64,000 nucleotides of DNA from Escherichia phage ECBP2: the sequence record NC_018859.1; one strand, given 5' to 3'. Shown here piece after piece: positions 1,886 to 54,804 of the stretch. The notes under the pieces are model-generated. The model made no database searches and was not told the DNA's origin. It was given only the letters and a program-made list of their open reading frames with translations. The first letter of the stretch is position 1. The number at the start of each line of letters is the position of its first letter. Position numbers and translations under genes: made by a program.

Positions 1886-1914
1886 TTATAACGATAATGT
1901 AGAAGGAGTATACA

Positions 1915-2382
1915 ATGTTTGGAGAAAAAGGAGAACTCACGCCTACACAGGTAGCTGAGGTTACAGGAAGATTACCCGGTGTAACTGATGAATTGGAAAG
2001 CCGTGGTATGGAGCCAAGCACAGGGAAGTTCCAAAAGGGAAATAAGTTCGGACGACCCAAAGGTAGTAGAGGTAAGTTGACACAGCTCATGTTGGACCGA
2101 GTTGCTGCAAGTCATCTGTCCCCTGATGAAGTGCTGATTCAAATTTATGAAGACCCAAATATTCCACCTGATCTTAGATTCAAAGCTGCAAGTAAAGTTG
2201 CAGATCTGGTATATCCGAAGGCAGCTTCTGTTGAGATTAAGATTGAGGATGAGAATGTAATTAACGAGGATTCGTTGAACGCACAAATCAAGGACTTCTT
2301 GGCTGGAGCATTAGGTACAGATGTGCTACCTCCAGAGGACTCTGAGGACGCTGAAAAGGAGGAGGAAGCGGACGAGAGTTAA
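1915..2382 (+). CDS. putative terminase small subunit / DNA-binding protein
   Basis: Directly upstream of the large terminase gene; basic GNKFGRPKGSRGK segment and acidic C-terminus; RBS GAAGGAG. Confidence 0.4.
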   Translation: MFGEKGELTPTQVAEVTGRLPGVTDELESRGMEPSTGKFQKGNKFGRPKGSRGKLTQLMLDRVAASHLSPDEVLIQIYEDPNIPPDLRFKAASKVADLVYPKAASVEIKIEDENVINEDSLNAQIKDFLAGALGTDVLPPEDSEDAEKEEEADES

Positions 2383-9386: not shown

Positions 9387-9417
9387 GGCTGCCTTCGGGT
9401 GGCCTTTTCTTGTTTTA
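9387..9417 (+). terminator. rho-independent terminator candidate
   Basis: GGCTGCC-TTCG-GGTGGCC hairpin followed by TTTTCTTGTTTT. Confidence 0.5.
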
Positions 9418-9438
9418 AGACCTATACAAGCCAGTGTG

Positions 9439-9447
9439 TAATGTATA
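9439..9447 (+). promoter_or_regulatory. TAATGTATA promoter-like motif
   Basis: Exact TAATGTATA about 34 nt upstream of the 9481 start; the same 9-mer recurs upstream of genes on both strands. Confidence 0.35.
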
Positions 9448-9480: not shown

Positions 9481-10227
9481 ATGGCGATGCCAGACGTTCA
9501 AAACCCAATTAATACCTACGGATGGCTTAAGAAGGCTGTGTCCCTCTGGGCTGACCGTGATGACCCTGAATTTGTTAATCAAATTCCAAACTTTATTAAC
9601 TTTGCAGAAAAGGAAATCTATCGTAACTTACGTATTCCTTCTCTGGAAAAAGAAGTATATTTAGATATTAAAGATGGTGTGGCTTTTATCCCACCAGACT
9701 TCTTAGAAGCACAATGGATTATGAGAGCTTCGAATGGGATGATGTTCCGAGCAACCTCTCCTGAAGAACTTGATTGGATGAAAAGAAATAACTCTATTAA
9801 CCCATCCAACTGGAATCAAGGTGATGTGATGTTTGCTCGTTTAGGTAGTCGCTTTATGTTCTACCCACTCATTGATGCAGACACTCCTATTTATCCTGAT
9901 GATGGAGCACCTGAGATTCCTGCTGATAATGCTGTGGTTTTGAGTTATTATGCTGACCCTCCAGAATTCCATGAAGACGAAGATACAAGTGCTATTCTGA
10001 CTATTGCTCCTGAATTACTTCTCTATTTTACTCTACGTCATGCTTCTTTGTTTGTTCAAGATGATAATGGAGTGCAGAAGTGGTCTGCTCTTGGTAAAGC
10101 AATTCTAGATGAAATTGTTGAGCAGAGTAAGAAAGCAGAATACTCAGGGTCACCTCTTGTAATCCCTCGAACCATTAGCCGTCTTAATAGCTCTCGTGAA
10201 GTGTACGGCATTCGTAGAAACAGATAA
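9481..10227 (+). CDS. virion structural protein (possible head-tail adaptor or tail tube component)
   Basis: 248 aa, RBS AGGAGG, placed between capsid and tail fiber genes. Confidence 0.45.
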   Translation: MAMPDVQNPINTYGWLKKAVSLWADRDDPEFVNQIPNFINFAEKEIYRNLRIPSLEKEVYLDIKDGVAFIPPDFLEAQWIMRASNGMMFRATSPEELDWMKRNNSINPSNWNQGDVMFARLGSRFMFYPLIDADTPIYPDDGAPEIPADNAVVLSYYADPPEFHEDEDTSAILTIAPELLLYFTLRHASLFVQDDNGVQKWSALGKAILDEIVEQSKKAEYSGSPLVIPRTISRLNSSREVYGIRRNR

Positions 10228-24636: not shown

Positions 24637-26268
24637 ATGCAACAAACATCTTACGCGTATCTTCGTAGTCAAGACCCGCGCAATCAGATTTATGGTGATC
24701 GTCAGAGAGGGGTTACGGCCTCTCCTTACATGTCTAGACCTGCTGGTCCAGCTGCTGACCTTTCTATGTATCAGCGTCCTGCTGTACCTGCTGGTTTGGA
24801 TGAACAAGTACAACAAGCTCAGGCTGATCAACAGGCAATGGTCAATCCGGGATTCAAGCAACGTTTGTATGAACAGCAAGGCATTTCTGTCCCTACCAGT
24901 TTGGCTGGTATTGACGCTGGTATTAATCCGGGTGAAGAAGGCTCTATGATACCTCCTGATGTAGCTCCTGCTTCTAGTCCTCTTCCGGTTACTGCTCCTG
25001 CTAAACCAATTGAAGAGTCAGATAAAGAATTTGCCCCTGAACAAGTACAACAGGCACAAGGTGTGATGAATACTATCGCTTCTGGAGTTCCTCAGGGTGA
25101 AGGTATGAGCGGTGCTACTCGTGCTGCTGACCAAGAACGTGTTAACCAAGATATCCTTAAAGTTGCACAATCTAAGAACCCAGCAGAAGCTTGGAAGACT
25201 ATGCAGAAACAACCTTTCTATCAGAACTCTAGTTTCTATACTGGTTTGATGGGTGTAGGTCTTTCTATTATGTCTGGTAAGTCTCCGATTGAAGCATTCC
25301 AGATTGGTTCTGGTATGGCATCTCAGGATGAAGCTAAACAACAGTTGGAGTTGAACCGTGATAACCTGATTGAACAAGGTTACTCTCAAGATTCTGTAGC
25401 TGCTGCTATAGCTTCTGGTGATCCTTCGATGTTGAAGATGCGTCAGATTAGTCCTCAGGAGAAGATGGCTCTTGCTGCTCAGGATGAAGCTCGTGCTAAT
25501 CAAGAGTGGGATAGACGTCAACAGATTCAAGACCAGTCGGTTCGTGAACGTGCTGCTGAAACTCGTCGTGCTGCTGAAGAACGTGCCGATGCACAGTTTG
25601 CTAAACAGAAAGAGCTTATTGGCTATCGTGATCAGGTTAAAGCAGACCGTGCAGAACAAGCTGCTCAGAGCTTCAACTTCAGTACGAAAGAGCTTCGTAA
25701 CGTTCAGAATACTGCTGAAGGCTCTGTTGCTAAACAGTGGGCAGAAAAAGCAGCTCTGTTTAAACAGTCTCACAAAGACTTGGATTTGGCAGACAAAGCC
25801 ATTAAAGATGGTGATTATCAATCTGCTCGTACCGCTTACATGCAGGCTATCATGAACTCCGCAAGGGCTGAAATTGGTGCTAACCGCTCTCTGCAAGCAG
25901 ATGACTTATCCCACTTTGCAGAAGACCCGTCAATCTTTGTTAAGACTGGTAACACTTGGTCTCTCAAAGCTGGTTATCGTCCTTCTGATGCAGCTCTGTC
26001 TTATGCTCGTAAGCAGGCAACAGTTGGTGCTTCTTCCGCTGATAAGGGTGTTCTGGAATCTAAGAAAGCTACAATTGATGCTTATATTGGTTCTGGCATG
26101 GATAAGAAGCGTGCAACTGCTGTGGTTAACCGTGGTATCCCTTCTGGTGGTTTCTATGACCCATACAAGACTTTTGATGCAGAAGCTGATGAAGCTGTTG
26201 GTGGTGCAGCAACTAATCCCAAACTTAATGGTGCTCTGTCTTCTAATGTTGATTGGATGATTCAGTAA
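24637..26268 (+). CDS. internal virion protein (hypothetical)
   Basis: 543 aa, RBS AGGAG, lies in the run of probable ejection/internal proteins. Confidence 0.5.
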   Translation: MQQTSYAYLRSQDPRNQIYGDRQRGVTASPYMSRPAGPAADLSMYQRPAVPAGLDEQVQQAQADQQAMVNPGFKQRLYEQQGISVPTSLAGIDAGINPGEEGSMIPPDVAPASSPLPVTAPAKPIEESDKEFAPEQVQQAQGVMNTIASGVPQGEGMSGATRAADQERVNQDILKVAQSKNPAEAWKTMQKQPFYQNSSFYTGLMGVGLSIMSGKSPIEAFQIGSGMASQDEAKQQLELNRDNLIEQGYSQDSVAAAIASGDPSMLKMRQISPQEKMALAAQDEARANQEWDRRQQIQDQSVRERAAETRRAAEERADAQFAKQKELIGYRDQVKADRAEQAAQSFNFSTKELRNVQNTAEGSVAKQWAEKAALFKQSHKDLDLADKAIKDGDYQSARTAYMQAIMNSARAEIGANRSLQADDLSHFAEDPSIFVKTGNTWSLKAGYRPSDAALSYARKQATVGASSADKGVLESKKATIDAYIGSGMDKKRATAVVNRGIPSGGFYDPYKTFDAEADEAVGGAATNPKLNGALSSNVDWMIQ

Positions 26269-26288
26269 GACCTAAGTCCTATCTCTTA

Positions 26289-26297
26289 TAATGTATA
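26289..26297 (+). promoter_or_regulatory. TAATGTATA promoter-like motif
   Basis: Exact TAATGTATA about 37 nt upstream of the 26334 start. Confidence 0.35.
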
Positions 26298-26333: not shown

Positions 26334-29300
26334 ATGGCTAACTTAAAACCGTGGGAAGAAGCTTCTAAAAGCCCTGCGTATTTGAACGCCTCCCCTGAGC
26401 AACAGTCTCAGATGCGAGAACAATATAAAGCAGCAGGTGGAACAATTCCTGAGGCGGCTCCAGCTCCGAAACAAGAAGAACAACCGGGATTAATTGGTGA
26501 CTTTGCTCAAGGTGTGTCCAATGCTATTCAATCAGGTGGTGCTAATATTGCAGCTAGTGCTGCTAGAGGTATTGGTGGATTAGTTGAGATTGGAGAGAAT
26601 CTAACTGGTTCACAGACAAGCTATGGTAAGCGTATTCAAGAGAACTCTAAGAATTTATTAGAAGAACGTCTCTCTAAGATTGAAGATGGTATTGGGAAGT
26701 CAGCTGGTCAGTATGCTGGTGTCGCTGCTGATATCGGTTTGACAGTTGCTAACCCTGCTATAGCTGCTGCTGTTATTGCAGCTCGTGAGACAGGCCGTGC
26801 TTATGCAGACCAAACTCCAGAAGAGGGTGAAGAGAAGTCTGTTCTTGATGCTGGTTTAGTTGGTGGTGCTAACTTTGCAGCTCAGAAGATTCTTCCGGGG
26901 ATGACAGGCACTGCTTCTACTACTCTAGGTCGTGTTGGTCAGAGTGTAGCATCTAATGCAGTGGCTGGTGCTAAAGGTGGTGCTCTTGTAGGTGCTGCTG
27001 AAGCACAGAACAAATATGGTGATGACACTACTCTTGCTAATATTATTGAAGGTGCTGTAGAAGAAGGTGCGATGGGCGCTGCTTATGGTGGGGCTATTGG
27101 TGGGGTTCATGGATTGATCAGTCGTCCTAGTCCTCAAGTATTTGACCGTACTCCAGAGCATGTTAAAACTGATATTGCCGCTGAAGATGAAGCGATACGT
27201 AGTGCTACTAATGCTGATGAATTACGTGAAGCGTATTCTAAAGCTGACAATGCTAACACTGCTTCTGCCCTTAACCTTCTGGACGAGAATGGTTTCCGTG
27301 TTACTGATGCTGTGGCTATGGATTCTCCTGCTGCTCAGCGTATCCTGAACACTGACCAAAGTCGTGCTGAGAAGGCTGCTACCATTCTGGAAGATCGTTC
27401 TAACGTTCCGGGTTTGAACCCTCTTGCTGCTCCTAACAAGCGTCAAGGTAAAGCGAACGCTGATAACGAACACAACCAGAAACAAGCCGTAGCAATGAAA
27501 GATGCGATGGCTGACTATACGAAAGACAACACTAAGTCTCTATCTGACGTACTGGACAATCTTGACCGTGAATTAACATCTGCTCGTGCTAGTGGTGACT
27601 TTACTGGTAGTGCTATGGATATTAAGAATCGTACTCAAGCTGACCGTGACTTCATTGATGCTTACAAAACTTTCTATAACGAAGCTAACCGATTCAAAGC
27701 TCGTGATGGTGAAGACTTCAACAACTTCATCGAGAAAGCAACTGAACTACAGAAGCTAGCTGATAATGTTTCTCCAGAGATGAAGACTGCTATTGGTGGT
27801 TTGAAGAAACTCAAAGGTATGCCTGAAGGTTTCAACCCAATCCAAGATGCTTTCACTCTGAATAACACAGCTAAGTTAATGAGTAACCAAGACCGTGGTT
27901 GGACCTCTCTAACTGCTGACGGTTTCAAAGAAGCTGCTCCTCCGGTTCTGATTAAGAATCCACTTGGTGCTGCTAAACATGTTCTCAACCGTTTCCGTTC
28001 TGACCGTGCTCGCTCTCAACGTGAAGGCCAACAGGCGGCTAACAGCGAAGCTATTCGTTCTCTTGCTCGTAGTGATATGGAAGTAACTCGTGCTCGTGCT
28101 CAGGCTGATGAAGCTCGTGCTGCGATGGAGAAAGAACCTGAAGTTGATGACATTAAATTTAGAACTCAAAATGACCCGGAAATCGAACCGGTTCGGGAGC
28201 CTTCTGCTACTACTGTGACGGAAGAAATTTCCTCTCCTCAAACCTCTCCTTTAACTGCTCGTGATTTGGTCGCACAAAGACGTGCTTTGAAGGAAGCTCA
28301 AGCTAGACGTCAGGAAGCCGAAGCTAGTAAGATTCAGGAAGAGCCAACTCCCGAGCCAGAGCCACAAGAACCAGTTACTACAGCGAGAGATTTAGTTGCT
28401 CAACGTCGTGCTGTTTCAGAAGCTCGTAAACGTCAAGAAGCAGAAGAGGCCAGCAAGGCTGCTGAGAGCGCCCCCGAGGAACCAACTGTTCAAGCAGAGC
28501 CATTGCCTACCCGTGCTCCTAAAGCTCCTGAGGTTGAGGCTGAGCCTGTTAAACCGGCTACTGGAATCGAACGTCTGGCTGCTATGTCAAGTGCTGCTCG
28601 TCAAGCTACTAAAGACCGTGCAGATCGCTTTGCTCGTTCTCTGTATACGGCAGGTGCGAAGGCTAAAGCTACAGCTGAAAACTTCCTTTCTTATAAAGGT
28701 GACCCGAAAGAGTTGATGCGTCGTATTCGTCAGGAAGACCAAGCGAACAACTCCGAACGTCATGCTGAGATGGCTCGTAACCAACTTGCTTCTCAACAGG
28801 GTATTGCTGCTGCTAAGTCACAACGTGTTCGTTCTTCGTTTGCTGATTGGGTTAAGGAACGTGGTCTGCCTTCTGATATTGCTACCAAGGCATTACGTGC
28901 TGAGGAGAAAGGTATTGGTGGGAACGTGACTAGTTTGGATTCACTGAAGCGTAGGTCTGAACGTCTGTATCAGAAACAACGTGATGATGAATTTAACAAA
29001 CTATATGAGGAAGCTCTTGCAGAGAATAAGAAGATTGACAAAGCTGATGCCCCTAAACTGGTTGACCAGAAGAAAGAGTTACACAGTGAAATCAATACAC
29101 TTCTTGATGCAGAGCCATTACGTCCAGCTCAGAAAGATGCTATGCGTAAGATGATGGAAGATTTTGTAGATGGGAAGTTTAAAGCTTCAGAGAGGGCTGG
29201 AAGGGAAGATGCTTTGGAAGTGGGACAGATGAAGGATATATGGGATGGCTTTATCAACACCTATAACCGTGAAGTTAACATGTTCAACAAAGCTAATAAG

Positions 29301-30752
29301 AACTCTCAGTACGAAGCAGCAGCTAAACACCTGCAAGCACGTCAGGAACGTCTTGATACGCTCCGTAACAGGGCTAAGGCTCGTAGTGATGCCAAGGCAG
29401 CGGTAGAGACAGAAAGGCAGTCTCTCGAAGCTATAGCGGCTCAGAAATCGGAGATGGAGAAACTGATGAAAGATCTGCCAGAGTCAGTACGTGAAGCTCA
29501 GGAAGGTCGTACGCTGAAACAGTTAGCAGCTCACCATGAGAAGAACTCTCCTGTACCACCAGAGCGTTTCCGTAGTATCATTGAACGTATCCACAACGCA
29601 GAGAGTGATTACATCGACCGTAAACGTCGACTCACTGAAGCGGAAGAAGATGCTCGTGAAGCTAAGTGGAATAAGATGTATGAGCAAGCGGAAGAGATGA
29701 ACCGTAAGTTCGATATTGACTCTCGTGTACAGCGTGATAAGAAGCTCAAAGAAGCTCAGGAAGCAGAGAATGACCGTATGGCAGTACAACGTCAACGTGA
29801 TGACATTCACAAGCGCCTGATGCGTTCTATGGAGGATAAGGGTATTCCTAAGGAAGATGCAGAAATCTTTGCAGGTTCTTATATGGATAACCGTTACTCT
29901 CTTCTGGAGAAACCTATGACTCCTACTGAGCACCAGAATGCTCGCTCTCGTATTGAATCTGATATCTCTAAGTTTGCTAAGGATTTTGAGAAGATGACAC
30001 CAATCGAGAAAGATATTGCTAAGGCAACTGGTGATATGGATGGGAAGGTAGAGGTGGATGCAGACACTTCGAAAGCTATCGAAGATGCGAAGAAGGTAGA
30101 TTCTGAGTTGAAGAAACTTCAGGATGAAGAGTTGGAAATGGAGAAAGTTCGTTCGGCGTTGCCGGAAGATGAAAGATCTCAAGCCTCCTCTGATATACTG
30201 GAAAGTATTAAGAAGCAGGAAGATGACTTTGCTAACAAAGCAGAGAAAGCTTTTATCGAAGGGAAAGACTTGCAGGAGCTGGCTAGTGTAGCGGAGGTTC
30301 TAGATAGGGTTCATGGTGCTGACAAAGCTGGTAATAACCGTCGCTTTGTGCGTGCTTTACAAACGGCTGCGGAGAACAAGAAACAATATGGAGATAATCC
30401 AGTGGCTTGGTTTAGTGCTGATGATTACTCTGCTATTGCGAAACTTGGTGCTGCTTCAGCGGGTGGTAACAAATCTAGAGCACTGGAGAAAATCTTTGGT
30501 TCTACTGCTGAACAAGCTAAAGGGAAACTTTTAGGGCGGGATGATGTAGCGAAGATTAGACATGTGATTGAAGAGAATCCTGATGTTAAGATTCCTTCTT
30601 ACAAGACAACTACTCGACAAGAGTATTTACAGTTCTTGGAGAAGTATAATGACGAGGGAGAGTTGAAAGTCAAACGTGGTTCTCTGTCTGACAAGTTGGA
30701 GAGAGGTAAGCGTCAAGCTAAACTCCGTGTTAGAGTTCGAGCTAAGGAGTAA
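26334..30752 (+). CDS. large internal virion / ejection protein (coiled-coil rich)
   Basis: 1472 aa; Ala/Glu/Lys/Arg-rich helical composition; internal tandem repeat TARDLVAQRRA(L/V)...EAEASK at about 28250..28480. Confidence 0.6.
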   Translation: MANLKPWEEASKSPAYLNASPEQQSQMREQYKAAGGTIPEAAPAPKQEEQPGLIGDFAQGVSNAIQSGGANIAASAARGIGGLVEIGENLTGSQTSYGKRIQENSKNLLEERLSKIEDGIGKSAGQYAGVAADIGLTVANPAIAAAVIAARETGRAYADQTPEEGEEKSVLDAGLVGGANFAAQKILPGMTGTASTTLGRVGQSVASNAVAGAKGGALVGAAEAQNKYGDDTTLANIIEGAVEEGAMGAAYGGAIGGVHGLISRPSPQVFDRTPEHVKTDIAAEDEAIRSATNADELREAYSKADNANTASALNLLDENGFRVTDAVAMDSPAAQRILNTDQSRAEKAATILEDRSNVPGLNPLAAPNKRQGKANADNEHNQKQAVAMKDAMADYTKDNTKSLSDVLDNLDRELTSARASGDFTGSAMDIKNRTQADRDFIDAYKTFYNEANRFKARDGEDFNNFIEKATELQKLADNVSPEMKTAIGGLKKLKGMPEGFNPIQDAFTLNNTAKLMSNQDRGWTSLTADGFKEAAPPVLIKNPLGAAKHVLNRFRSDRARSQREGQQAANSEAIRSLARSDMEVTRARAQADEARAAMEKEPEVDDIKFRTQNDPEIEPVREPSATTVTEEISSPQTSPLTARDLVAQRRALKEAQARRQEAEASKIQEEPTPEPEPQEPVTTARDLVAQRRAVSEARKRQEAEEASKAAESAPEEPTVQAEPLPTRAPKAPEVEAEPVKPATGIERLAAMSSAARQATKDRADRFARSLYTAGAKAKATAENFLSYKGDPKELMRRIRQEDQANNSERHAEMARNQLASQQGIAAAKSQRVRSSFADWVKERGLPSDIATKALRAEEKGIGGNVTSLDSLKRRSERLYQKQRDDEFNKLYEEALAENKKIDKADAPKLVDQKKELHSEINTLLDAEPLRPAQKDAMRKMMEDFVDGKFKASERAGREDALEVGQMKDIWDGFINTYNREVNMFNKANKNSQYEAAAKHLQARQERLDTLRNRAKARSDAKAAVETERQSLEAIAAQKSEMEKLMKDLPESVREAQEGRTLKQLAAHHEKNSPVPPERFRSIIERIHNAESDYIDRKRRLTEAEEDAREAKWNKMYEQAEEMNRKFDIDSRVQRDKKLKEAQEAENDRMAVQRQRDDIHKRLMRSMEDKGIPKEDAEIFAGSYMDNRYSLLEKPMTPTEHQNARSRIESDISKFAKDFEKMTPIEKDIAKATGDMDGKVEVDADTSKAIEDAKKVDSELKKLQDEELEMEKVRSALPEDERSQASSDILESIKKQEDDFANKAEKAFIEGKDLQELASVAEVLDRVHGADKAGNNRRFVRALQTAAENKKQYGDNPVAWFSADDYSAIAKLGAASAGGNKSRALEKIFGSTAEQAKGKLLGRDDVAKIRHVIEENPDVKIPSYKTTTRQEYLQFLEKYNDEGELKVKRGSLSDKLERGKRQAKLRVRVRAKE

Positions 30753-31845: not shown

Positions 31846-32664
31846 TTACCAAGTTTTATCTAACCATGACCATTCAAAGAGGTCACCTTCAGCTTGTCCG
31901 ACGAAGAGCAATCGAGCATTTTCTAGCATCTTAGCTTCTGCTTCTTCCTCGAACCTCTTATAGTATTCCATTCGTATAATGTGATAAAGAGTACACTTAT
32001 CGAATACCTTCTCAATAAGTTTGATTGCAGCCTTGCTACCAATACCTTTACGACGCATAACTAGGTTGCCACCCCACATCATTTCAACTTTCTCACCACA
32101 TCCGGGGATGTTGTCTGTACTGTCCCCAATCAACATCTGATAGAAGAAGTTCTGCCATGCTACTTCCTCTGATACATAATGAGGAGGTACTTCTTTCTGT
32201 CGTTCACCACAAGCCCAGCGATAATGCCATCCGGGAGTGATTAACAAATCCTTATCACGAGTACAGATGATAGTGTTCTTCTCAATACGTTGTCGTTCAG
32301 CGAGTGCATCATCTGCTTCTCTACCAAACACCTCAACGTACTGATAATGTTCTTTGATGTAATCACTAACGTTCTGCCAATGATGTGGCCTTTCTCCCGG
32401 AGGTCGGTTAGCTTTGTAACCTTGTTGCTGAGCAATATCAAATCGGAAGTTACCACCTTCACTAAAATAGAAGACAGTTCTTTCACAACCAGCTCTTGAG
32501 ATGATTACATCAATCTTATGTTGGAGACGTTCAATCAAGAATCCATAATCAACTGGAACACGACCTGTGTCTAGAAAAGGATGCTCTTGTGTAAGAGCAC
32601 CAACCTCATACCGTAGAACATCTCCGTCCACAATCGCTACTTCTGGATAAGATATATCACTCAT
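31846..32664 (-). CDS. 5'-3' exonuclease / flap endonuclease (FEN, PIN-like)
   Basis: VAIVDGD, EADD, DKD and GDSTDNIPG motifs; ATG at 32664 follows GGAGGAA (ORF-track start at 32715 is further upstream). Confidence 0.8.
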   Translation of the reverse strand: MSDISYPEVAIVDGDVLRYEVGALTQEHPFLDTGRVPVDYGFLIERLQHKIDVIISRAGCERTVFYFSEGGNFRFDIAQQQGYKANRPPGERPHHWQNVSDYIKEHYQYVEVFGREADDALAERQRIEKNTIICTRDKDLLITPGWHYRWACGERQKEVPPHYVSEEVAWQNFFYQMLIGDSTDNIPGCGEKVEMMWGGNLVMRRKGIGSKAAIKLIEKVFDKCTLYHIIRMEYYKRFEEEAEAKMLENARLLFVGQAEGDLFEWSWLDKTW

Positions 32665-33100
32665 GATTTCCTCCATGGTGTCGGATAAGGTGACAATTAG
32701 CACAGAGCATGACATATTTATCTAACTCTGCCTTAAGTTTAGGCCAGTACCGATAGTATGAAGGGTTTTCGTCTTTTGTTTGTTCATCCAGATGATGGAA
32801 CTGCATAACACAAGGTGGGTATTCTTTTTTACAATCTAAGCAAACACCTCCCATGTATTCTATTGCTTTTATCTTAAGATCTCTATTTGCCTTATTAGCA
32901 ACCTCTTGCCGTCTTTTTCTATTGGCAGCATACCAAGCTCTTTTCTTTTCTGCGGTACAAATCTTACAAGTTCCAGTCACACCCTTAGTGCACACCTTAT
33001 TGGGGTGATATTCTGTTAGGGCTTTTTCAACCCCACAAACGTTACACACCTTAGTATCTGCATCCACAATTGCTACTTCAGGATAGATTACATCAGGCAT
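32657..33100 (-). CDS. HNH endonuclease (zinc-finger type) carrying a copy of the FEN N-terminus
   Basis: CNVCG...CKIC...FHHL...LCANCH; ATG at 33100 follows GGAGAG (ORF-track start at 33124 is TTG); first 15 codons mirror the FEN start. Confidence 0.6.
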   Translation of the reverse strand: MPDVIYPEVAIVDADTKVCNVCGVEKALTEYHPNKVCTKGVTGTCKICTAEKKRAWYAANRKRRQEVANKANRDLKIKAIEYMGGVCLDCKKEYPPCVMQFHHLDEQTKDENPSYYRYWPKLKAELDKYVMLCANCHLIRHHGGNHE

Positions 33101-33692
33101 AGAGATCTCTCCGTGTCTGTGCAATACTGTACTCTAAATACTCCACTGCCTCTTCTACAGAACCATCATTAAAGAGAAGATAGGTTGAAAGGTTCGTGCC
33201 TTCAATATAGGAACGAGAGTCTCCTTCAAAAGTACATCCATCCCGATAAATCTGAATTACTCGAACATCGAAATGCTTTTCCAGTTCTTCAACTTCTGCT
33301 TTGAATCCACCATCAGAGAAAACGATAACATCGTTCTGTCCTAGCAGTTGTTGTTGTTGAATGCTGCTAACAGCAAGTTTACCCATGCAGGTATCCCCAA
33401 ACATTGGCTTCAGATAGTTCTCACTAGTTGAAATCATCAAATCTCGAACTGACTTACCGCCCCATTCAGGACGGTTATGTTCTTTCCACTCACGGTCGTT
33501 GTACAGCTCCATGAACTCATGAAGAGGGAGACCTAATGCAGCAGCAGCCACTCGATACATAGGCTCCTTAAAAGCCTTTACATGAGGTCTAAACTCATCG
33601 TTACCGAGTGTCTTCTCTAACCAAGAATTAGCGATTGTATCTTTACCACAACCCGGTGGTCCATTCAGAATTACTACTAATGGTTTACTCAT
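33093..33692 (-). CDS. P-loop kinase (putative deoxynucleoside monophosphate kinase)
   Basis: Walker A GPPGCGKDT at residues 11-19; start overlaps the upstream stop (TAATGA). Confidence 0.5.
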   Translation of the reverse strand: MSKPLVVILNGPPGCGKDTIANSWLEKTLGNDEFRPHVKAFKEPMYRVAAAALGLPLHEFMELYNDREWKEHNRPEWGGKSVRDLMISTSENYLKPMFGDTCMGKLAVSSIQQQQLLGQNDVIVFSDGGFKAEVEELEKHFDVRVIQIYRDGCTFEGDSRSYIEGTNLSTYLLFNDGSVEEAVEYLEYSIAQTRRDLYA

Positions 33693-34342
33693 TATTGAAT
33701 CATCCCTTGAAGATCTTCTTTATCAAAGTGCTTCTCTACTACCGCTTCATACAGATCACGATTCTCTGCATAACGGCGATAGAAAGTTCCGTGTGAAATT
33801 CCCAGCTCCTGCTGGATGTGATCATGAGGTATTCCAAGGAAGAGCATAGAGAACATGCTTGCCATTTTCTTGGTATCCATAATATCACTTAAGTCTTGGA
33901 AGAAGAAAAAGATTCTAGATTCCAAGAATGGGTCTCCAGTAGAGTCATGCTTATCCATCGCAATCTCTAAAGGACTTTCCCACGAGTTCATCTCAGGAGG
34001 TCTAAACATATCAGCCTCTGGAATAGAGTAGATACGTCGGTCTCCAACTGTCTGACGGTTAGAACGAATTGACCAGATGATATTCTTAACACGATAAGTC
34101 ATGTGCTCAATATCTTTTTCATCAGTGAGCAGAAGTTCTTCTTGCTTTGCAAACACAAAACGCCAAGCGTTCAGTAACACTTCCTGAGCAACATCCTCTG
34201 CTTCGTGATAATCTTTAATGTCATACATAAAATACTTATGCACAACTTTCCAGTTCTCCCGATAGAATTCATCGAAGGTTGGATAATACTTAATAGGAAT
34301 GCCATGAATACGATAGCGTGTAGGTGTTGTCTTTTTCTTCAT
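33692..34342 (-). CDS. sigma-70 family (ECF-like) sigma factor
   Basis: Region-2-like [14 protein letters not shown] and region-4 HTH-like [23 protein letters not shown]; RBS AAGGACGA. Confidence 0.6.
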
Positions 34343-34366
34343 AAGTCGTCCTTAACTTACTTTACA

Positions 34367-34591
34367 TTAAACTACGCAGAATAAATACATAGCCGTTTCA
34401 GGGCAAGGGATGGCTGTCTGAATGCCACTCACTTTAATCCACATATCCTCTTCAGAGTCATAATAGGCCCAATAGGATTGATCTCCATCTACAAAGAACT
34501 TAAAGGTTCGTCCCCAAATCTGGTTGTTATACTCCCATACTGCATGAAATTGAGTAACACCTTCTGGTATTGTAAGTTCCGCTCTGATCAT
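34367..34591 (-). CDS. hypothetical protein
   Basis: 74-aa ORF. Confidence 0.4.
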   Translation of the reverse strand: MIRAELTIPEGVTQFHAVWEYNNQIWGRTFKFFVDGDQSYWAYYDSEEDMWIKVSGIQTAIPCPETAMYLFCVV

Positions 34592-35093: not shown

Positions 35094-35115
35094 AAAAAAG
35101 CCACCCGAAGGTGGC
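35094..35115 (-). terminator. rho-independent terminator (UUCG loop)
   Basis: On the - strand: GCCACC-TTCG-GGTGGC followed by TTTTTT. Confidence 0.55.
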
Positions 35116-35139
35116 TAAGCTATTACAAGGAGAGATTCA

Positions 35140-35880
35140 TTAGAAAGGGCTGTCATCTTCTTCAAAGGTAGATTGCGGCTCTTCATTAATAGTAGGGATA
35201 CTTGGAGTCGCGTCTTTCTGTTCAGTGTCAGAAGCGCGAGTAACTTCACGACCGGCCAGAGGAATGTTTTTAGCATCGTTAGCTTGAGTCAGAAGGTTAC
35301 GTTGGAATGGAAACATAGCTTGATAAGCAGCCAAGTTGGCGTCAGTTTCAGCGTACGGTTCGAAGAAGATAAGGTCGCTACGAGGAGCACCTACTGCATC
35401 ACGATACTTGGTCGGGATTGGAGTGATGCTCTTGATGGAGTTTTTCTTCTCACCAGCTTTGTTGGTGTAAGAGTTAACTAGAATGTTGACAGGCTGACCA
35501 AGCAGCATATCTTTGAACCAACCCAAATCACCTTTCAGTGCTTGAACACTTGGGTCGATCATTTTAATTAGGTTCAGAATACCAGAGTTCTTAGCTCGTG
35601 GGTTTACATCGAAGGATTTAAACTGACAAGCAGGACGTGGGTCCAATGCCTTACCATCACTATCTGTACCAGTTGCGTCAACACCAATCAGTTCAAATGC
35701 CAAGTCCATACGGAAAGCTGGGTTCTTAGGAGTAACTGCTTTGGTCTTAGGGTCAATCCAAGGGTCACGATTGTGAACACCTAAACCTACTACACGAACA
35801 ATTCGTGCTTCGTACTCGCCATCAGGGATTACATCGTAGTTGGATTTACGGGATACAGACAGTTCAGGGATCATAGACAT
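35140..35880 (-). CDS. single-stranded DNA-binding protein (T7 gp2.5-like, putative)
   Basis: 246 aa ending in the acidic tail STFEEDDSPF with C-terminal Phe; RBS AAGGAA. Confidence 0.45.
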   Translation of the reverse strand: MSMIPELSVSRKSNYDVIPDGEYEARIVRVVGLGVHNRDPWIDPKTKAVTPKNPAFRMDLAFELIGVDATGTDSDGKALDPRPACQFKSFDVNPRAKNSGILNLIKMIDPSVQALKGDLGWFKDMLLGQPVNILVNSYTNKAGEKKNSIKSITPIPTKYRDAVGAPRSDLIFFEPYAETDANLAAYQAMFPFQRNLLTQANDAKNIPLAGREVTRASDTEQKDATPSIPTINEEPQSTFEEDDSPF

Positions 35881-35939: not shown

Positions 35940-35948
35940 TATACATTA
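35940..35948 (-). promoter_or_regulatory. TAATGTATA promoter-like motif
   Basis: Exact motif on the - strand about 60 nt upstream of the SSB start, inside a 350-nt ORF-free region. Confidence 0.35.
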
Positions 35949-36010
35949 CACCTATACAGATAAGGTTCTATTATACTATAACCTTTTTGGTAGTAGATAA
36001 CAGTAAGTAG

Positions 36011-36019
36011 TAATGTATA
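36011..36019 (+). promoter_or_regulatory. orphan TAATGTATA motif on the + strand (possible ncRNA or antisense promoter)
   Basis: Exact motif with no + strand ORF downstream before 36229. Confidence 0.25.
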
Positions 36020-36228
36020 TATGGTATAGTTAGTAAAACTATTGCACGGGACCGACGACTATAAGGCGCGGACAACCACCTCTCATAAGTTTGTTAGAAA
36101 TTGAGAGACTACCGGAAGGGCAGGAGACACCTGCGAGATAAAAATAGAGAATTAAGGAAATCCTTGATTTAGGTTGAGGACTCCTAGGACTTTGATTCTC
36201 TATTAAAATCAAAAGAAAACTAATTAAC

Positions 36229-36825
36229 TTACCATTCAATAAACTGATTTAGATTAGTATACTTAACTTCTCTCTGAAACTGAAGATTAGATTCTCTCTG
36301 TTTAGTAAGAAGATTAAGTTCATCTTCCTTTCTTTTATCAAACTCTTTTCTAATCTCTTGCAGAGACACAGCTCTGTAATCAATTTGTTCCATAGAAGTA
36401 CAAAAGTATCTCCAATCTTTGATAGTAGAGTTATGAGTATGAGCATAGATATTATACTTTCCTCTCATTTCATCAGAGTGAATAGGAATATGAGTTACCC
36501 AAAACTCTTTGTACTTATAATCACCACTGATGTGTCTAAAGACTTTCATCATATCAGGGAGAAGTTCTAATCTGTCATGATTTCCTAAGACAAGATGTTT
36601 CTCTCCTTTTACTTCAGCGATGATATCAAGGGCATACTTTTCAAACACCCAATCACCGGTAAAGAAAGTTTTATCACGTTTAGTAACATGGTCAAACGCT
36701 GCTAAGATAGCTTTGTCGTGTTCTTCAATACTACTAAACCTCTTCCTAAAGCTACAGATGTTACGATGGCCTAGGTGACCATCACCTGCAAAATAAACTT
36801 CAGCCATTCTCGTATGTGTCCTCAT
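36229..36825 (-). CDS. calcineurin-like metallophosphoesterase
   Basis: GDGHLGH, GNHD and HTH motifs; start uncertain (MRTHTR at 36825 or MAEVYF at 36807). Confidence 0.65.
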   Translation of the reverse strand: MRTHTRMAEVYFAGDGHLGHRNICSFRKRFSSIEEHDKAILAAFDHVTKRDKTFFTGDWVFEKYALDIIAEVKGEKHLVLGNHDRLELLPDMMKVFRHISGDYKYKEFWVTHIPIHSDEMRGKYNIYAHTHNSTIKDWRYFCTSMEQIDYRAVSLQEIRKEFDKRKEDELNLLTKQRESNLQFQREVKYTNLNQFIEW

Positions 36826-38300: not shown

Positions 38301-38317
38301 AGCCACCCGAAGGTAGC
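38301..38317 (-). terminator. terminator-like hairpin (UUCG loop)
   Basis: On the - strand: AGCTACC-TTCG-GGTGGCT followed by TTTCTTGTCT. Confidence 0.4.
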
Positions 38318-39408: not shown

Positions 39409-40013
39409 TTCAGTTATTCCCAAATTACTTCGGGTGTCGGACTATATCATAACAGCATAGCTAATTTGCTGTTGTTGGCGCTTCGAGGGTTTCCCTGTTA
39501 ACCCCCTACTCCCTTAGGATAGTCTCTACACTTTCCACTTCCGAATCCATCTACAACCGATTCCGAAGCTCACACCAAACTTCTCTGCAAGATGTACACC
39601 AGAGCATTCTGTTTCTAGCCAATAGAGCCTTGCAGCCTCTTGCCTATCTCCATTTCTTCCAGTGTTTGATTCTATTGCATGTTCTGAACCTTCAAGCATT
39701 TCTAAGTGCTCAAGATTGGAACAAGCTCTATTCTTGCATTTGTGATTTATTTCATAACCGTCAGGAATAGAACCAAAAGATTCTTCCCAAACATGCCTGT
39801 GATACATGACCCATTTGCCATCTATTACTTTTCTGAAATAACCATTTTTATTAAGTTTGTGTGAGATAGGGATGATACACCCTGTTTCGGTTGTTTCCAA
39901 AACAAGAGTTTTCTTAGCCATATCATCTCCTAATAGCTTAGCTCGGTATTGCCCTCAACTTAATGGTAGGGTTTCACCGAGTTCACCAACTTTTACATGC
40001 ACAATGAAAGTTT
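39409..40013 (-). mobile_element. putative group I intron (about 605 nt) carrying an HNH homing endonuclease ORF, inserted at polymerase motif C
   Basis: Joining the His codon ending at 40014 to GAT at 39408 gives VIDMH|DEGQF (motif C). Exon 1 ends in U and the insert ends in G, as group I splice sites require. Confidence 0.45.
39526..39921 (-). CDS. HNH homing endonuclease (intron-encoded)
   Basis: 131 aa; KWVMYHRHVWEESFG...EINHKCKNRACSNLEHLE (HNH_3-type); RBS GGAG. Confidence 0.7.
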   Translation of the reverse strand: MAKKTLVLETTETGCIIPISHKLNKNGYFRKVIDGKWVMYHRHVWEESFGSIPDGYEINHKCKNRACSNLEHLEMLEGSEHAIESNTGRNGDRQEAARLYWLETECSGVHLAEKFGVSFGIGCRWIRKWKV

Positions 40014-42615: not shown

Positions 42616-42640
42616 AAAAGGCCACCCGAAATGGGTAGCC
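42616..42640 (-). terminator. terminator-like hairpin
   Basis: On the - strand: GGCTACCC-ATTTC-GGGTGGCC followed by TTTTCTTTT. Confidence 0.4.
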
Positions 42641-42645
42641 TTATA

Positions 42646-42972
42646 TTAACTTGAGCTTAAAGCTCCTTTTCTAGACTTGACTCCGCCTGCTGATTTTCCA
42701 GCACGATCTCCACTTTTGCCGCCGTTCGAGCGATTTCCAGAGATTGATTCAACACGTAAGTTACTTGACGCATTAGAACCTCCCGACTTGATTGATCGTT
42801 TATGTCCAACGTCTTTACCTCGGACAGCAGCTTTTCCATCGCGCTTTTCAACGATGCGACGTGCACGGTGGCGCTGAGCATCTCCGCTCTTGCTACCAAC
42901 ACCTGTCTCCCCACGTTTGATTGCAGTTCTTCGTTCTTGTGCATAATCACGTTTCGCCTTATCGGTCATCAT
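42646..42972 (-). CDS. basic Lys/Arg/Gly/Ser-rich protein (possible nucleic-acid binding)
   Basis: AAGGAG then ATGATG at 42972; preferred over the overlapping frame 42657..42950, which lacks an RBS. Confidence 0.5.
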   Translation of the reverse strand: MMTDKAKRDYAQERRTAIKRGETGVGSKSGDAQRHRARRIVEKRDGKAAVRGKDVGHKRSIKSGGSNASSNLRVESISGNRSNGGKSGDRAGKSAGGVKSRKGALSSS

Positions 42973-43004: not shown

Positions 43005-43013
43005 TATACATTA
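43005..43013 (-). promoter_or_regulatory. TAATGTATA promoter-like motif
   Basis: aTAATGTATAct on the - strand about 33 nt upstream of the 42972 start. Confidence 0.3.
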
Positions 43014-47140: not shown

Positions 47141-47707
47141 TTAGTAAGACACGTCACCACTAGAGTGGGACATGTTGCTCTTGACGAAGTAACAGAACTT
47201 GCCAAGACCTTCATTAATTTCTTGAAGCATACTCTGGTCTACTGGATAGGTGCACAAGTCTGAATCAAACTCGTCCATCTTTTCAATGATACACATCAGA
47301 GTCATGCACATGTCGGAAAGCATACCGTCCATGTCGAGATCAGCACTACCTTCTCTGAACCAAGCACAACTAAGATAGCTACTAGCTGTTGCATCCACTT
47401 TGATACAGTGATAACGCATTCGCTCAGCTACTCGGTCTCCTGTTTCACGAGCATAGTCTTCTAATTCATCGAACATACCATGAACACCTTGGAAACCAGC
47501 TCCAGAGACGTTCCAGTGGTAATTCTTTGCTTTGATGTGTAGAAGCTCAAGGTTAGCCTGCACACCGCATAGGATGTGCTCTAGACTGTTACCGCTGATC
47601 AGTTTATTCATTCCCTCAAGACGAGAGATAGAGGAGTCAGTTGTAGAGAATGGGTTACTAGAACCCACTCGTGTTAGTTCAGGTAAGTCGAAGACATTAT
47701 TATGCAT
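47141..47707 (-). CDS. Dps/ferritin-like protein (putative)
   Basis: HWNVSGAGFQGVHGMFDELEDYARETGDRVAERM parallels the Dps ferroxidase-site motif; RBS GGAGAG. Confidence 0.5.
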   Translation of the reverse strand: MHNNVFDLPELTRVGSSNPFSTTDSSISRLEGMNKLISGNSLEHILCGVQANLELLHIKAKNYHWNVSGAGFQGVHGMFDELEDYARETGDRVAERMRYHCIKVDATASSYLSCAWFREGSADLDMDGMLSDMCMTLMCIIEKMDEFDSDLCTYPVDQSMLQEINEGLGKFCYFVKSNMSHSSGDVSY

Positions 47708-48047
47708 TAGGAGTCTCTCCTTCTAAGTTGGTTGAATTGGCTACGTTACGAGCAATGTTGTCCATGACCTGCTGGGTAATAACAATGCAATTCTGTGGGT
47801 CTACAGACTTAGAACGCCCCATTTCAGGGTCATAAACCTTAACACGTTTGGCTGTTGAGCCAGTAACTTGCAACACTTTGAGAAGATAACCTTGATTTCC
47901 AATAGACCATGCAACAACATCACGATTCTTGATATAACGACCAAGCATATCACGATGATAGAACTGCTGCATAACTTTAGCTTTGCTAATCTCTTCAGAT
48001 GGCGGGGCCACTTTACTCAAATCTAACATAACTCTCTCCTGTTTCAT
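47700..48047 (-). CDS. hypothetical protein
   Basis: 115-aa ORF. Confidence 0.45.
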   Translation of the reverse strand: MKQERVMLDLSKVAPPSEEISKAKVMQQFYHRDMLGRYIKNRDVVAWSIGNQGYLLKVLQVTGSTAKRVKVYDPEMGRSKSVDPQNCIVITQQVMDNIARNVANSTNLEGETPNA

Positions 48048-48066: not shown

Positions 48067-48075
48067 TATACATTT
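48067..48075 (-). promoter_or_regulatory. AAATGTATA promoter-like motif
   Basis: 8/9 match to TAATGTATA on the - strand just upstream of the 48047 start. Confidence 0.25.
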
Positions 48076-48099
48076 GAGAGTTATCATATCTACTACCAA

Positions 48100-54379: not shown

Positions 54380-54565
54380 TTATTCTACTTCGAAGTGTTT
54401 GATCACACCAGTCAACACATCAGATTGGAATGTACCTACCAACTCCACTCCTCGGAAGAAGTTAACACTTGTTCCAAGCGATTCAAAACGCTCTGCTTGA
54501 ATATCTAGAGATTGAATATTACCTTCTGAGTTTACTGTACGAAACATGATTGTGTATTTATTCAC
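54380..54565 (-). CDS. hypothetical protein
   Basis: 61-aa ORF. Confidence 0.35.
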   Translation of the reverse strand: MNKYTIMFRTVNSEGNIQSLDIQAERFESLGTSVNFFRGVELVGTFQSDVLTGVIKHFEVE

Positions 54566-54804
54566 AGAGTTGTTACTCCCTTATCTTCTTGTGCAATTGC
54601 GATGATACGCTCAACACATTCCATTGAATATTTATCACCTCGTTTAAGGAAGGTGACAATTGCAGAGAACTGATTACCAATCATTCTCTTGTTTGTGATT
54701 CCAAACTCTTCACAGAGTTGGTTAATAGCTTTACGAGAACCAACAATCAGAGGTTCTTTTTGTTCGGTCATTCCACGACTGATCAAATCTTCGATAGACA
54801 ACAT
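54562..54804 (-). CDS. hypothetical protein
   Basis: 80-aa ORF. Confidence 0.35.
   Translation of the reverse strand: MLSIEDLISRGMTEQKEPLIVGSRKAINQLCEEFGITNKRMIGNQFSAIVTFLKRGDKYSMECVERIIAIAQEDKGVTTL

Follow-up and report, generated by a model that had tools for sequence, protein, structure and literature searches.

The DNA around positions 33692–34342 encodes a putative phage sigma factor, and a nine-base motif, TAATGTATA, recurs ahead of genes on both strands. The question raised by this locus is whether these elements form a dedicated transcription system, in which the motif marks promoters that are read by the phage's own sigma factor. The window analyzed here (the whole stretch of 64,000 nucleotides) covers most of the genome of a phiEco32-like coliphage, a podophage of the Gordonclarkvirinae (SU7/Bas88-like), and a phiEco32-type gp36/gp79 switch very probably explains both its sigma gene and its promoters.

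Relationship to phiEco32 and other phages

Relatives for comparison were drawn from the GenBank phage collection. The nearest deposited relatives are ~90–95% identical to the window, and the structural module shares only ~90% DNA identity with the nearest deposited genome. phiEco32 and the window are colinear in gene order and their proteins are ~80% identical, but the window phage belongs to a different species or genus-level group (SU7/Bas88-like), has no orthologue of the macro-domain gene 37 beside the sigma gene, and differs in the genes neighboring it. A scan of IMG/VR using the sigma protein as a single query found no relatives, and a scan using a two-sequence alignment found only four phiEco32-type contigs. 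The phiEco32 system of gp36, gp79 and the tAATGTAtA element is described in Savalia 2008, Pavlova 2012, and Xu et al., NAR 2025 (PDB 9M7Y), and a 3.4 Å cryo-EM structure of the RNAP-gp36-gp79-P68 open complex is available together with mutagenesis (PMC12276001).

The sigma factor and its partner protein

Two genes encode the predicted regulators:

33692..34342, minus strand: phage sigma factor, phiEco32 gp36 orthologue (216 aa, ATG start)
54562..54804, minus strand: gp79 orthologue (BLASTP and PDB matches)

The 216-aa open reading frame reported in the first-pass annotation is confirmed, with an ATG start and on the minus strand, and by sequence comparison its product is an orthologue of gp36, a very divergent member of the sigma-70 family. 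It is 81.4% identical to phiEco32 gp36 across 215 of 216 residues by tblastn (81–82% overall), matches PDB 9M7Y chain F over residues 1–215 (E = 2.2e-119), and matches PHROG 1740, 'RNA polymerase sigma factor' (8.8e-45). Sequence profiles alone barely detect its identity as a sigma factor: the Pfam Sigma70_r2 match is below threshold (E = 0.0011; 19.2 bits with a cut-off of 24) and is confined to residues 26–61, the Sigma70_r4 and r4_2 Pfam profiles have no match in the open reading frame, and there is a weak helix-turn-helix profile match at residues 176–201 (TetR_N, E = 0.12). The region-2-like and region-4-like segments proposed from the sequence are nonetheless backed by the cryo-EM structure of gp36, which has a sigma-2-like N-terminal domain and a sigma-4-like C-terminal domain (PMC12276001); the sigma-4-like C-terminal fold is assigned to the window protein from a solved structure with 82% sequence identity.

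The residues listed as contacts in PMC12276001 are conserved by pairwise alignment with gp36. Those that read the −10 element (E79, H80, Y83, R84, W90, S91, S94 and N95) are unchanged, as are those contacting the clamp helix (D44, E47, E49, D50 and E54). The −35-contacting residues Y186 and R187 of gp36 correspond to Y188 and R189 of the window protein, which lie in an identical 11-residue stretch; the window protein differs from gp36 in carrying a two-residue insertion in the inter-domain linker. Binding to core RNA polymerase and initiation at cognate promoters have been demonstrated for phiEco32 gp36 (PMC8948821, PMC12276001), and the window protein probably works likewise as a two-domain sigma factor, though its sequence does not qualify it as an ECF family member.

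The gp79 orthologue is 80% identical to phi32_79 over 80 aa (BLASTP, E = 6e-49) and matches 9m7y_G, 'gp79', in the PDB (1.3e-38). In phiEco32, gp79 is both an inhibitor of sigma-70 and a co-activator of gp36 (PMC8948821, PMC12276001).

Six predicted promoters orthologous to those of phiEco32

The gp36 promoters of phiEco32 have the consensus tAATGTAtA with transcription starting 6–8 bp downstream (PMC8948821, PMC4331800, PMC4281155). Six have been mapped experimentally (P6, P13, P26, P40, P58 and P68; PMC8948821, PMC4331800), and two of these are published as variants, TAATGTAgA at P6 and aAATGTATA at P68 (PMC8948821 supplementary table). The element is present in the window at all six orthologous positions, including both variants, and the link to phiEco32-type promoters suggested in the first-pass annotation is right:

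1895..1903, plus strand: late promoter P6 orthologue, TAATGTAGA (same variant and context as phiEco32 1677+)
9439..9447, plus strand: late promoter P13 orthologue, TAATGTATA (with TAAGACCTA at −38 to −30, 9416–9424)
26289..26297, plus strand: late promoter P26 orthologue, TAATGTATA (with TAAGACCTA at 26266–26274)
35940..35948, minus strand: middle promoter P40 orthologue, TAATGTATA (exact motif and position)
43005..43013, minus strand: middle promoter P58 orthologue, TAATGTATA (exact motif and position)
48067..48098, minus strand: middle promoter P68 orthologue, AAATGTATA (48067–48075) and TGGTAGTAGATA (48087–48098) with an 11-nt spacer

The genes downstream of the six promoters have 78–90% amino acid identity to their phiEco32 orthologues. 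Counting from the last base of the motif up to the next same-strand start codon, the late promoters lie 12 nt ahead of the gene 6 orthologue (1915..2382; 90% aa identity), 34 nt ahead of the gene 13 orthologue (9481..10227) and 37 nt ahead of the gene 26 orthologue (26334..30752), and the middle promoters lie 60 nt ahead of the gene 40 orthologue (35140..35880; 86% aa identity), 33 nt ahead of the gene 58 orthologue (42646..42972) and 20 nt ahead of the gene 68 orthologue (47700..48047; 88% aa identity). The range of 12–60 nt is close to the 20–60 nt noted at first, the promoter at 1895 (+) being nearer to its gene. A terminator hairpin is located upstream of the P13 orthologue (at 9393), a strong terminator hairpin follows the gene 40 orthologue (35116..35099, minus strand), and a terminator-type hairpin follows the gene 58 orthologue (42621, minus strand). 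The P40 motif is found in 14 of 16 genomes scanned, the pattern being unmatched in ES17 and in one metagenomic contig.

Upstream of the nine-base element, gp36 contacts −37G and −34A in the P68 cryo-EM complex (PMC12276001), and in the numbering used here both bases fall within TGGTAGTAGATA. Counted by hand on the printed sequences, an A is present at −34 in all seven conserved sites (the six above and a further copy at 36011 on the plus strand, described below). A G is present at −37 in four of the seven (P6, P58, P68 and the further copy), and at this position P13 and P26 have A and P40 has T; P13 and P26, both late promoters, have TAAGACCTA in common instead. The requirement for −37G and −34A has been tested experimentally on P68 only (PMC12276001). 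Six of the seven conserved sites are oriented in the sense direction; the one at 36011+ runs antisense to the gene cluster.

Two further copies of the motif were considered and rejected. The variant at ~59750 on the minus strand had been counted as a member of the class, but it lies inside the upstream open reading frame (59753, TAATGTAGA) and phiEco32 reads TAATATTAC there; it is unconserved coding sequence and probably a chance match. A copy at 34361 on the minus strand, TAATGTAAA, is located 19 nt before the sigma start codon and was a candidate autoregulatory promoter; the upstream open reading frame uses its TAA as a stop codon, its −34 base is G rather than A, the closest relative, Bas88, has lost the critical G, and neither EK010 nor phiEco32 has the sequence.

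A candidate seventh promoter and a conserved non-coding block

The motif copy at 36011 on the plus strand was first listed as an orphan. The copy is indeed present; it is conserved across relatives and is not a stray one. Two predicted features are located here:

35988..36019, plus strand: orphan gp36-type promoter, TGGTAGTAGATA-N11-TAATGTATA (motif at 36011; bipartite)
36026..36205, plus strand: candidate non-coding transcript (from alignments and a consensus fold)

The orphan promoter is situated back to back with P40 and is directed away from all annotated genes, into ~180 nt of non-coding DNA. The 12-mer TGGTAGTAGATA occurs exactly twice in the window, at the orphan site and at P68, with 11-nt spacing to the nine-base element in both. 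An orthologue is present in phiEco32 at 36704+, both elements are invariant and the spacer variable in 14 of 16 genomes scanned, a variant form is found in ES17, and more metagenomic copies exist. The bipartite pattern also occurs at two unrelated metagenomic loci (L029 and L036), apparently by chance. The orphan site is not among the six published phiEco32 promoters (PMC4331800, PMC8948821), and targeted searches of the literature on phiEco32 or Kuravirus non-coding RNA or RNA-seq found nothing relevant. The predicted seventh promoter most likely fires too.

The candidate transcript would begin with a 5′ hairpin at the predicted start, continue through a variable cassette, and finish with a nearly invariant block of ~110 nt (~36103–36205), at the end of which lies a 15-bp hairpin. 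This 3′ domain is almost invariant across phiEco32-like phages while the flanking genes differ by 15–25%, and indels of 1 nt and of 2+1 nt in the alignment argue against a coding function. The consensus fold is −32.0 kcal/mol for the plus strand and −23.7 kcal/mol for the minus strand, with folding z-scores of −3.0 and −2.0, respectively. The 5′ hairpin has two compensatory pairs and seven G-U substitutions that pair only on the plus strand; four of the five predicted helices give no covariation evidence because the block is almost invariant. No Rfam match was found over the whole window at gathering thresholds, and permissive Rfam scanning of the orphan region returned only snoRNA matches attributable to chance. 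E. coli genomes yielded no match to the conserved block, and no second copy of it was found within the window. The conserved block may represent a phage RNA not described before, or it may function as DNA.

Transcription program and alternative explanations

Promoter use, start sites and timing in the window phage are carried over by orthology from phiEco32 experiments. Early genes would be transcribed by the host sigma-70 holoenzyme, after which the phage sigma and the small protein gp79 would appear. gp79 is expected to displace region 4 of the host sigma-70, shutting off host and early transcription. It would also bind the phage sigma at its C-terminal domain and stabilize that domain on the E. 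coli core RNA polymerase. Within the phage sigma, the N-terminal domain, which is sigma-2-like, would read the AATG of tAATGTAtA (−15 to −7) with DNA melting from −11, the sigma-4-like C-terminal domain would contact the −35 region (−37G and −34A in P68), and transcription would start ~7 nt past the element. The element is thus predicted to drive late plus-strand units at 1895 (P6), 9439 (P13) and 26289 (P26) and middle minus-strand units at 35940 (P40), 43005 (P58) and 48067 (P68); the seventh copy at 36011 (+), we infer, could produce a structured non-coding transcript of ~180 nt.

That the motif copies arise by chance in an AT-rich genome, without any shared function, is extremely improbable as a general account, and chance is refuted for the seven conserved sites. 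The exact motif occurs five times in the window (9439+, 26289+, 35940−, 36011+ and 43005−) with 0.69 expected (7-fold), and five or more copies were found in none of 100 dinucleotide-preserving shuffles. All five are intergenic, with an intergenic fraction of ~7.8% of the window by a crude gene map, and TAATGTATA is the commonest intergenic 9-mer (0.046 intergenic copies expected). The same seven positions are kept in phiEco32, in which ~20% of protein residues differ, and the element is kept in other relatives too while the flanking spacers vary. The remaining 13 one-mismatch sites are still best explained by chance. The first-pass annotation had grouped one-mismatch variants with the exact motif, and enrichment holds for the exact 9-mer but not for these variants as a class (20 in the whole window versus 18.3 expected); the core AATGTANA is likewise at the chance rate (15 versus 12.4), several variants fall in coding sequence or antisense to genes, and those at 59753 (−) and 34361 (−) are unconserved. 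With the one-mismatch variants at chance frequency, a 9-mer by itself is not enough to mark a promoter. The only meaningful variants are those at 1895+ (TAATGTAGA) and 48067− (AAATGTATA), since each is the orthologue of a mapped phiEco32 promoter. The conserved elements could also be host sigma-70 promoters, or sites for another regulator, that the phage sigma does not read. The SU10 genome paper suggests that sigma-70 holoenzyme might also use the middle promoters (PMC4281155), TGTATA is somewhat like a −10 hexamer preceded by TG, and a sigma-70-like scan gives weak matches in the region; none of the sigma-70-type matches, however, falls on a motif with proper −35/−10 spacing. This explanation is very unlikely given that the gp36 holoenzyme transcribes the orthologous phiEco32 sites in vitro and that gp79 inhibits the sigma-70 holoenzyme (PMC8948821, PMC12276001). 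Moreover, gp36 makes hydrogen bonds to A-14, A-13, T-12 and G-11 in the cryo-EM structure and mutations lower activity (PMC12276001), and those DNA-reading residues are all conserved in the window sigma. The initial proposal, that the phage sigma reads a promoter class of its own, is supported by the gp36 orthology and the six orthologous promoter positions.

At the seventh site, we tentatively consider it possible that a gp36-dependent promoter missed by the six-promoter maps drives a structured non-coding RNA of ~160–200 nt (36026–~36205, plus strand). The site could instead be silent, and the block could act as DNA or on the minus strand. Such a role for the block (36100–36205), either as a DNA element, e.g. 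a replication origin activated by back-to-back phage promoters in the manner of the T7 primary origin, or as a minus-strand terminator or processing site closing the upstream operon before P40, is rather unlikely. The minus strand does contain a 10-bp stem (AATAGAGAAT/ATTCTCTATT) followed by TTTTTAT, and on the plus strand the block is followed by an AT-rich stretch; two copies of the short direct repeat TAGGGACT and a palindrome, AAGGAATCCTT, also occur. No plus-strand terminator was found after the block and the seventh site has no downstream gene, and near-invariance deprives four of the five helices of covariation evidence. Against these points, a complete and conserved gp36-type promoter is directed into the block, the 5′ hairpin covaries at the predicted start with G-U variants that pair on the plus strand only, and the plus strand folds better than the minus strand by both energy and z-score. 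A simple terminator does not need 110 invariant bases, and GC skew tracks the direction of transcription, with a switch near 31 kb and no origin signal near 36 kb.

Comparison with other phage transcription systems

The sigma factor, gp79, and the promoter consensus and positions are already published for phiEco32 and its relatives, and the window matches phiEco32 in having orthologous sigma (81–82%) and gp79 (80%) proteins with the DNA- and core-contact residues kept, six promoter positions, two variant forms, and the P68 −35-region sequence. Only the candidate seventh promoter, together with the invariant block that follows it, goes further than the published set of six.

Salmonella phage 7-11, a related long-headed (C3-morphotype) podophage, likewise encodes a sigma-70-family factor (SaPh711_gp47), and its promoters likewise precede homologous late genes (PMC8948821). 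However, the 7-11 sigma is only ~15% identical to gp36-type sigmas, its late promoters have the different bipartite form GTAAtg-N16-aCTA, and the phage lacks both a gp79 homologue and a middle class (PMC8948821); the window is clearly of the gp36/phiEco32 type and not of the 7-11 type. Several database records label the sigma protein 'ECF sigma factor', and ECF (group 4) sigmas likewise have sigma-2-like and sigma-4-like domains with a linker through the active-site cleft (PMC12276001). The window sigma has only marginal sequence similarity to them (Sigma70_r2 below threshold and Sigma70_r4 undetected), gp36 differs in reading its −10 element, tAATGTAtA, with an unusual rotated first helix, and it has a C-terminal domain more compact than sigma-4 and needs gp79 for full activity (PMC12276001). 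The ECF relationship of gp36-type sigmas is visible at the structural level only (PMC12276001).

In the AsiA/MotA system of T4, region 4 of the host sigma-70 is likewise removed or remodeled by a small phage protein, which turns off host and early promoters and redirects the polymerase; this comparison with T4 sigma appropriation is drawn by the NAR 2025 authors themselves (PMC12276001). T4, though, keeps the host sigma-70 and adds an activator, whereas phiEco32-type phages bring their own sigma, which is stabilized by gp79.

The primary replication origin of T7 consists of phage promoters followed by an AT-rich region. By analogy, the orphan region may resemble it in having phage-specific promoters in a non-coding gap followed by AT-rich DNA, but there is no sequence relationship and the conserved structured block is without a T7 counterpart. 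No origin mapping for phiEco32-like phages was found in the literature.

For the window phage, the analysis adds annotation of six transcription units, three late and three middle, and of two regulators, with no new biology. If transcribed, the seventh site would contribute a non-coding RNA to a system that serves as a model of how phages take over the host RNA polymerase, and would provide a second natural promoter with the −35-region element of P68 for structure-function work. The product would be a conserved phage-sigma-dependent RNA with a regulatory or priming function, for which roles antisense to the upstream operon, in replication priming, or in protein binding are possible.

Sigma factor and partner protein

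In the GenBank phage collection the surroundings of the sigma factor ORF match 97 records, without exception phiEco32-group podophages of Escherichia or Shigella (Gordonclarkvirinae: Kuravirus, Suseptimavirus). TH34, TH42 and Bas88 are the top matches in this region (~95%), and the structural module reaches a top identity of only ~90%, indicating that the phage is a relative in its own right rather than a deposited one isolated again. Phage phiEco32 (NC_010324) is colinear with the window in gene order and strand layout. Two genes correspond to its sigma factor (gp36) and the partner of that factor (gp79):

33692..34342 (-), phage sigma factor, gp36 orthologue, 216 aa, ATG start
54562-54804 (-), gp79 orthologue, 80 aa, 80% identical to gp79

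The first-pass annotation proposed the 216-aa ORF as a sigma factor with region-2-like and region-4-like segments, and both the ORF and its ATG start are borne out. The Pfam Sigma70_r2 match is below threshold (E=0.0011, 19.2 bits; cut-off 24) and region 4 has no Pfam match; the protein falls in phrog_1740 'RNA polymerase sigma factor' (PHROGs, 8.8e-45). Its tblastn identity is 81.4% with phiEco32 gene 36, 92% with EK010 and E20-1, 97.7% with SU7, and at least 98% with the closest SU7-group orthologues listed. It matches PDB 9M7Y chain F (named 'RNA polymerase ECF sigma factor' in the deposition; E=2e-119), and the gp79 orthologue matches chain G (9m7y_G, 1.3e-38); this entry shows the open complex of E. 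coli RNAP with gp36, gp79 and P68 (PMC12276001).

In that complex the clamp helices carry the sigma-2-like N-terminal domain of gp36 (residues 1-103) and the flap-tip helix its sigma-4-like C-terminal domain (residues 138-214), with a linker threading the cleft (PMC12276001). The region 4 assignment is thus right at the level of gp36 structure, not of a sequence profile. The clamp-helix contacts are D44, E47, E49, D50 and E54; at the fork junction W90 and Y83 stack and R84 touches phosphate; N95, S91 and S94 read A-14, A-13 and T-12, with E79 and H80 reading G-11; and Y186 and R187 touch -34 and -37 (PMC12276001). Every published DNA- and core-contact residue is identical in the aligned window protein, where Y186 and R187 are Y188 and R189 owing to a two-residue linker insertion. 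The phiEco32 gp79 protein inhibits the sigma-70 holoenzyme and activates the gp36 holoenzyme (PMC8948821, PMC12276001).

Six orthologous promoters

The mapped gp36 promoters of phiEco32, numbered by downstream gene, comprise a late set (genes 6, 13 and 26) and a middle set (genes 40, 58 and 68) with a single consensus, tAATGTAtA, from which transcription starts 6-8 bp downstream; all phiEco32-subgroup phages carry the element at the expected positions (PMC8948821, PMC4331800, PMC4281155). The published supplementary table gives TAATGTAgA for P6, TAATGTATA for P13, P26, P40 and P58, and aAATGTATA for P68 (PMC8948821). When the window and phiEco32 are scanned in parallel, the same set appears at orthologous positions, which bears out the phiEco32 link made in the first-pass annotation.

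Orthologues of the gp36 promoters, with phiEco32 positions and distances to the same-strand start codon
1895 (+), P6 orthologue, TAATGTAGA; phiEco32 1677 (+); late side, 12 nt
9439 (+), P13 orthologue, TAATGTATA; phiEco32 9101 (+); late side, 34 nt
26289 (+), P26 orthologue, TAATGTATA; phiEco32 26014 (+); late side, 37 nt
35940 (-), P40 orthologue, TAATGTATA; phiEco32 36632 (-); middle side, 60 nt
43005 (-), P58 orthologue, TAATGTATA; phiEco32 42937 (-); middle side, 33 nt
48067 (-), P68 orthologue, AAATGTATA; phiEco32 46862 (-); middle side, 20 nt

The genes that these sites precede are phiEco32 orthologues (78-90% amino-acid identity), supporting the proposed promoter class read by the phage sigma factor. 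Exact TAATGTATA occurs five times in the window (9439+, 26289+, 35940-, 36011+ and 43005-; 0.69 expected), a number reached in 0 of 100 dinucleotide-preserving shuffles. All five copies lie within the ~7.8% left non-coding by a crude strand-aware gene map (0.046 intergenic copies expected), and an unbiased count returns TAATGTATA as the commonest intergenic 9-mer. The exact element is enriched, but one-mismatch variants occur at chance rate (20 sites with up to one mismatch in the window; 18.3 expected) and the core AATGTANA is not enriched (15 in the window; 12.4 expected), so the signal lies in the exact element and its placement.

The sigma factor and promoters belong to the gp36/gp79 transcription switch of phiEco32, which is already published in mechanistic detail and is met here in one more relative.

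A putative seventh promoter and the -35 region

The copy at 36011 (+), initially regarded as an orphan, is not a stray: phiEco32 has a counterpart at 36704 (+).

35988-36019 (+), putative seventh gp36-type promoter, TGGTAGTAGATA-N11-TAATGTATA, back to back with P40 and kept in relatives

The site faces away from all annotated genes, into a 350-bp gap between the gene 40 and gene 41 orthologues, and is not among the six gp36 promoters of the published lists (PMC4331800, PMC8948821 and its supplementary table, PMC4281155). In 14 of 16 genomes scanned the P40 element is followed after ~60 nt by TGGTAGTAGATA-N11-TAATGTATA, with both motifs invariant and the 11-nt spacer freely variable; ES17 carries a version altered by an insertion, and metagenomic contigs have the same arrangement as the 14 genomes.

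With the 9-mer numbered -15 to -7 (from 'AATGTA centred at -11.5' and the published gp36 contacts), the -37G and -34A contacts of the P68 structure fall within TTGGTAGTAGATA, 11 nt upstream of the P68 element. There are exactly two copies of the 12-mer TGGTAGTAGATA in the window, at P68 (48087-48098, -) and at the seventh site (35988-35999, +), with an identical 11-nt spacer to the 9-mer. Counted by hand in the window and phiEco32 scan sequences, -34 is A in all seven sites and -37 is G in four. Late promoters P13 (9416-9424, +) and P26 (26266-26274, +) instead share TAAGACCTA at -38 to -30, identically spaced from TAATGTATA in the window and phiEco32 alike; these copies may represent an upstream element of the late class that differs from the TGGTAG-type one at P68 and the seventh site. 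A third exact TAAGACCTA, at 38207 (+), is not beside any promoter element.

Other motif copies and repeated elements

The TAATGTAGA at 59753 (-), previously listed as a variant, does not belong to the class; it lies inside the upstream ORF and phiEco32 reads TAATATTAC there. An autoregulatory role was rejected for TAATGTAAA at 34361-34369 (-), which precedes the sigma start codon by 19 nt and probably does not act as a promoter: its TAA serves the preceding ORF as stop codon, -34 is not A, the essential G is gone in the closest relative Bas88 (although SU7 has the site), and it is absent from EK010 and phiEco32. The one-mismatch TAATGAATA at phiEco32 46 and 77407 (L001 46-54 and L002 27407-27415, both in the phiEco32 record) is not a promoter pair, its identical flanks at both record ends reflecting direct terminal repeats.

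A hairpin core, GCCACC-TTCG-GGTGGC, is present five times (0.34 expected):

9393-9403 (+), just before P13
35100-35110 (-), after the gene-40 orthologue, scoring as an intrinsic terminator
38302-38312 (-)
39428-39438 (+), one mismatch
42621-42631 (-), directly following the gene-58 orthologue

P40 and P58 each appear to drive one gene followed by a terminator, which for P40 raises the question of how the downstream sigma gene is transcribed. The 9-mer CCCATGTAT occurs three times (319-327-, 881-889- and 32850-32858+; 0.44 expected, and three in no shuffle), each time in sequence that is non-coding by the crude gene map. One further ORF stands out:

32657-33124 (-), 155-aa cysteine-rich ORF between exonuclease and dNMP-kinase orthologues, with an HNH-like CANCH motif at its end

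Insertion of a mobile homing endonuclease is the likely explanation; some relatives have an HNH or homing endonuclease annotated at this position, and part of the region is missing from the best relatives, whose alignments come in pieces starting at query position 57 or later.

Sequence downstream of the seventh site

Eighteen distinct versions of the region downstream of the putative promoter were aligned.

up to 36205 (+), candidate non-coding stretch, ~180 nt, with a 5′ hairpin, a cassette and a ~110-nt block
36045-36102 (+), cassette in two unrelated forms, separating the 5′ hairpin from the invariant block

The 5′ hairpin starts at the predicted transcription start (~36026, +) and contains two base pairs with compensatory substitutions, as well as one G-C to G-U change in seven sequences that keeps pairing only on the plus strand. 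Tested against column shuffles and slid controls, the covariation is significant and comes from this hairpin only; the remaining helices never vary and show none. The cassette has a long form (~70 nt; the window, MN05, ES17 and metagenomic or IMG/VR contigs L004 and L022) and a short form (~45 nt; phiEco32, SU7 and TH42); by locus, L010, L014, L004 and L022 are long and L001, L007 and L008 short. These forms cut across relatedness, the window being long and its closest relatives TH42 and E20-1 short, which suggests cassette exchange by recombination.

The ~110-nt block, which holds a 5-bp and a 15-bp hairpin, varies in very few columns, against differences of 15-25% in the flanking genes. Its indels (1 nt and 2+1 nt) argue against coding. 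No Rfam family matches the downstream region and no E. coli genome matches the block, which in IMG/VR is found only in four phiEco32-type contigs. The consensus fold is better on the plus strand (-32.0 kcal/mol; minus -23.7), and single-sequence folding z-scores point the same way, at -3.0 (plus) and -2.0 (minus), with -2.4 for the phiEco32 plus strand. TTTTTAT follows the large hairpin on the minus strand, making a terminator for the operon upstream of P40 a live alternative to a plus-strand RNA, as is a role for the block as DNA, perhaps origin-like. The putative seventh promoter and the invariant block downstream of it are the sole lead here that merits bench work.
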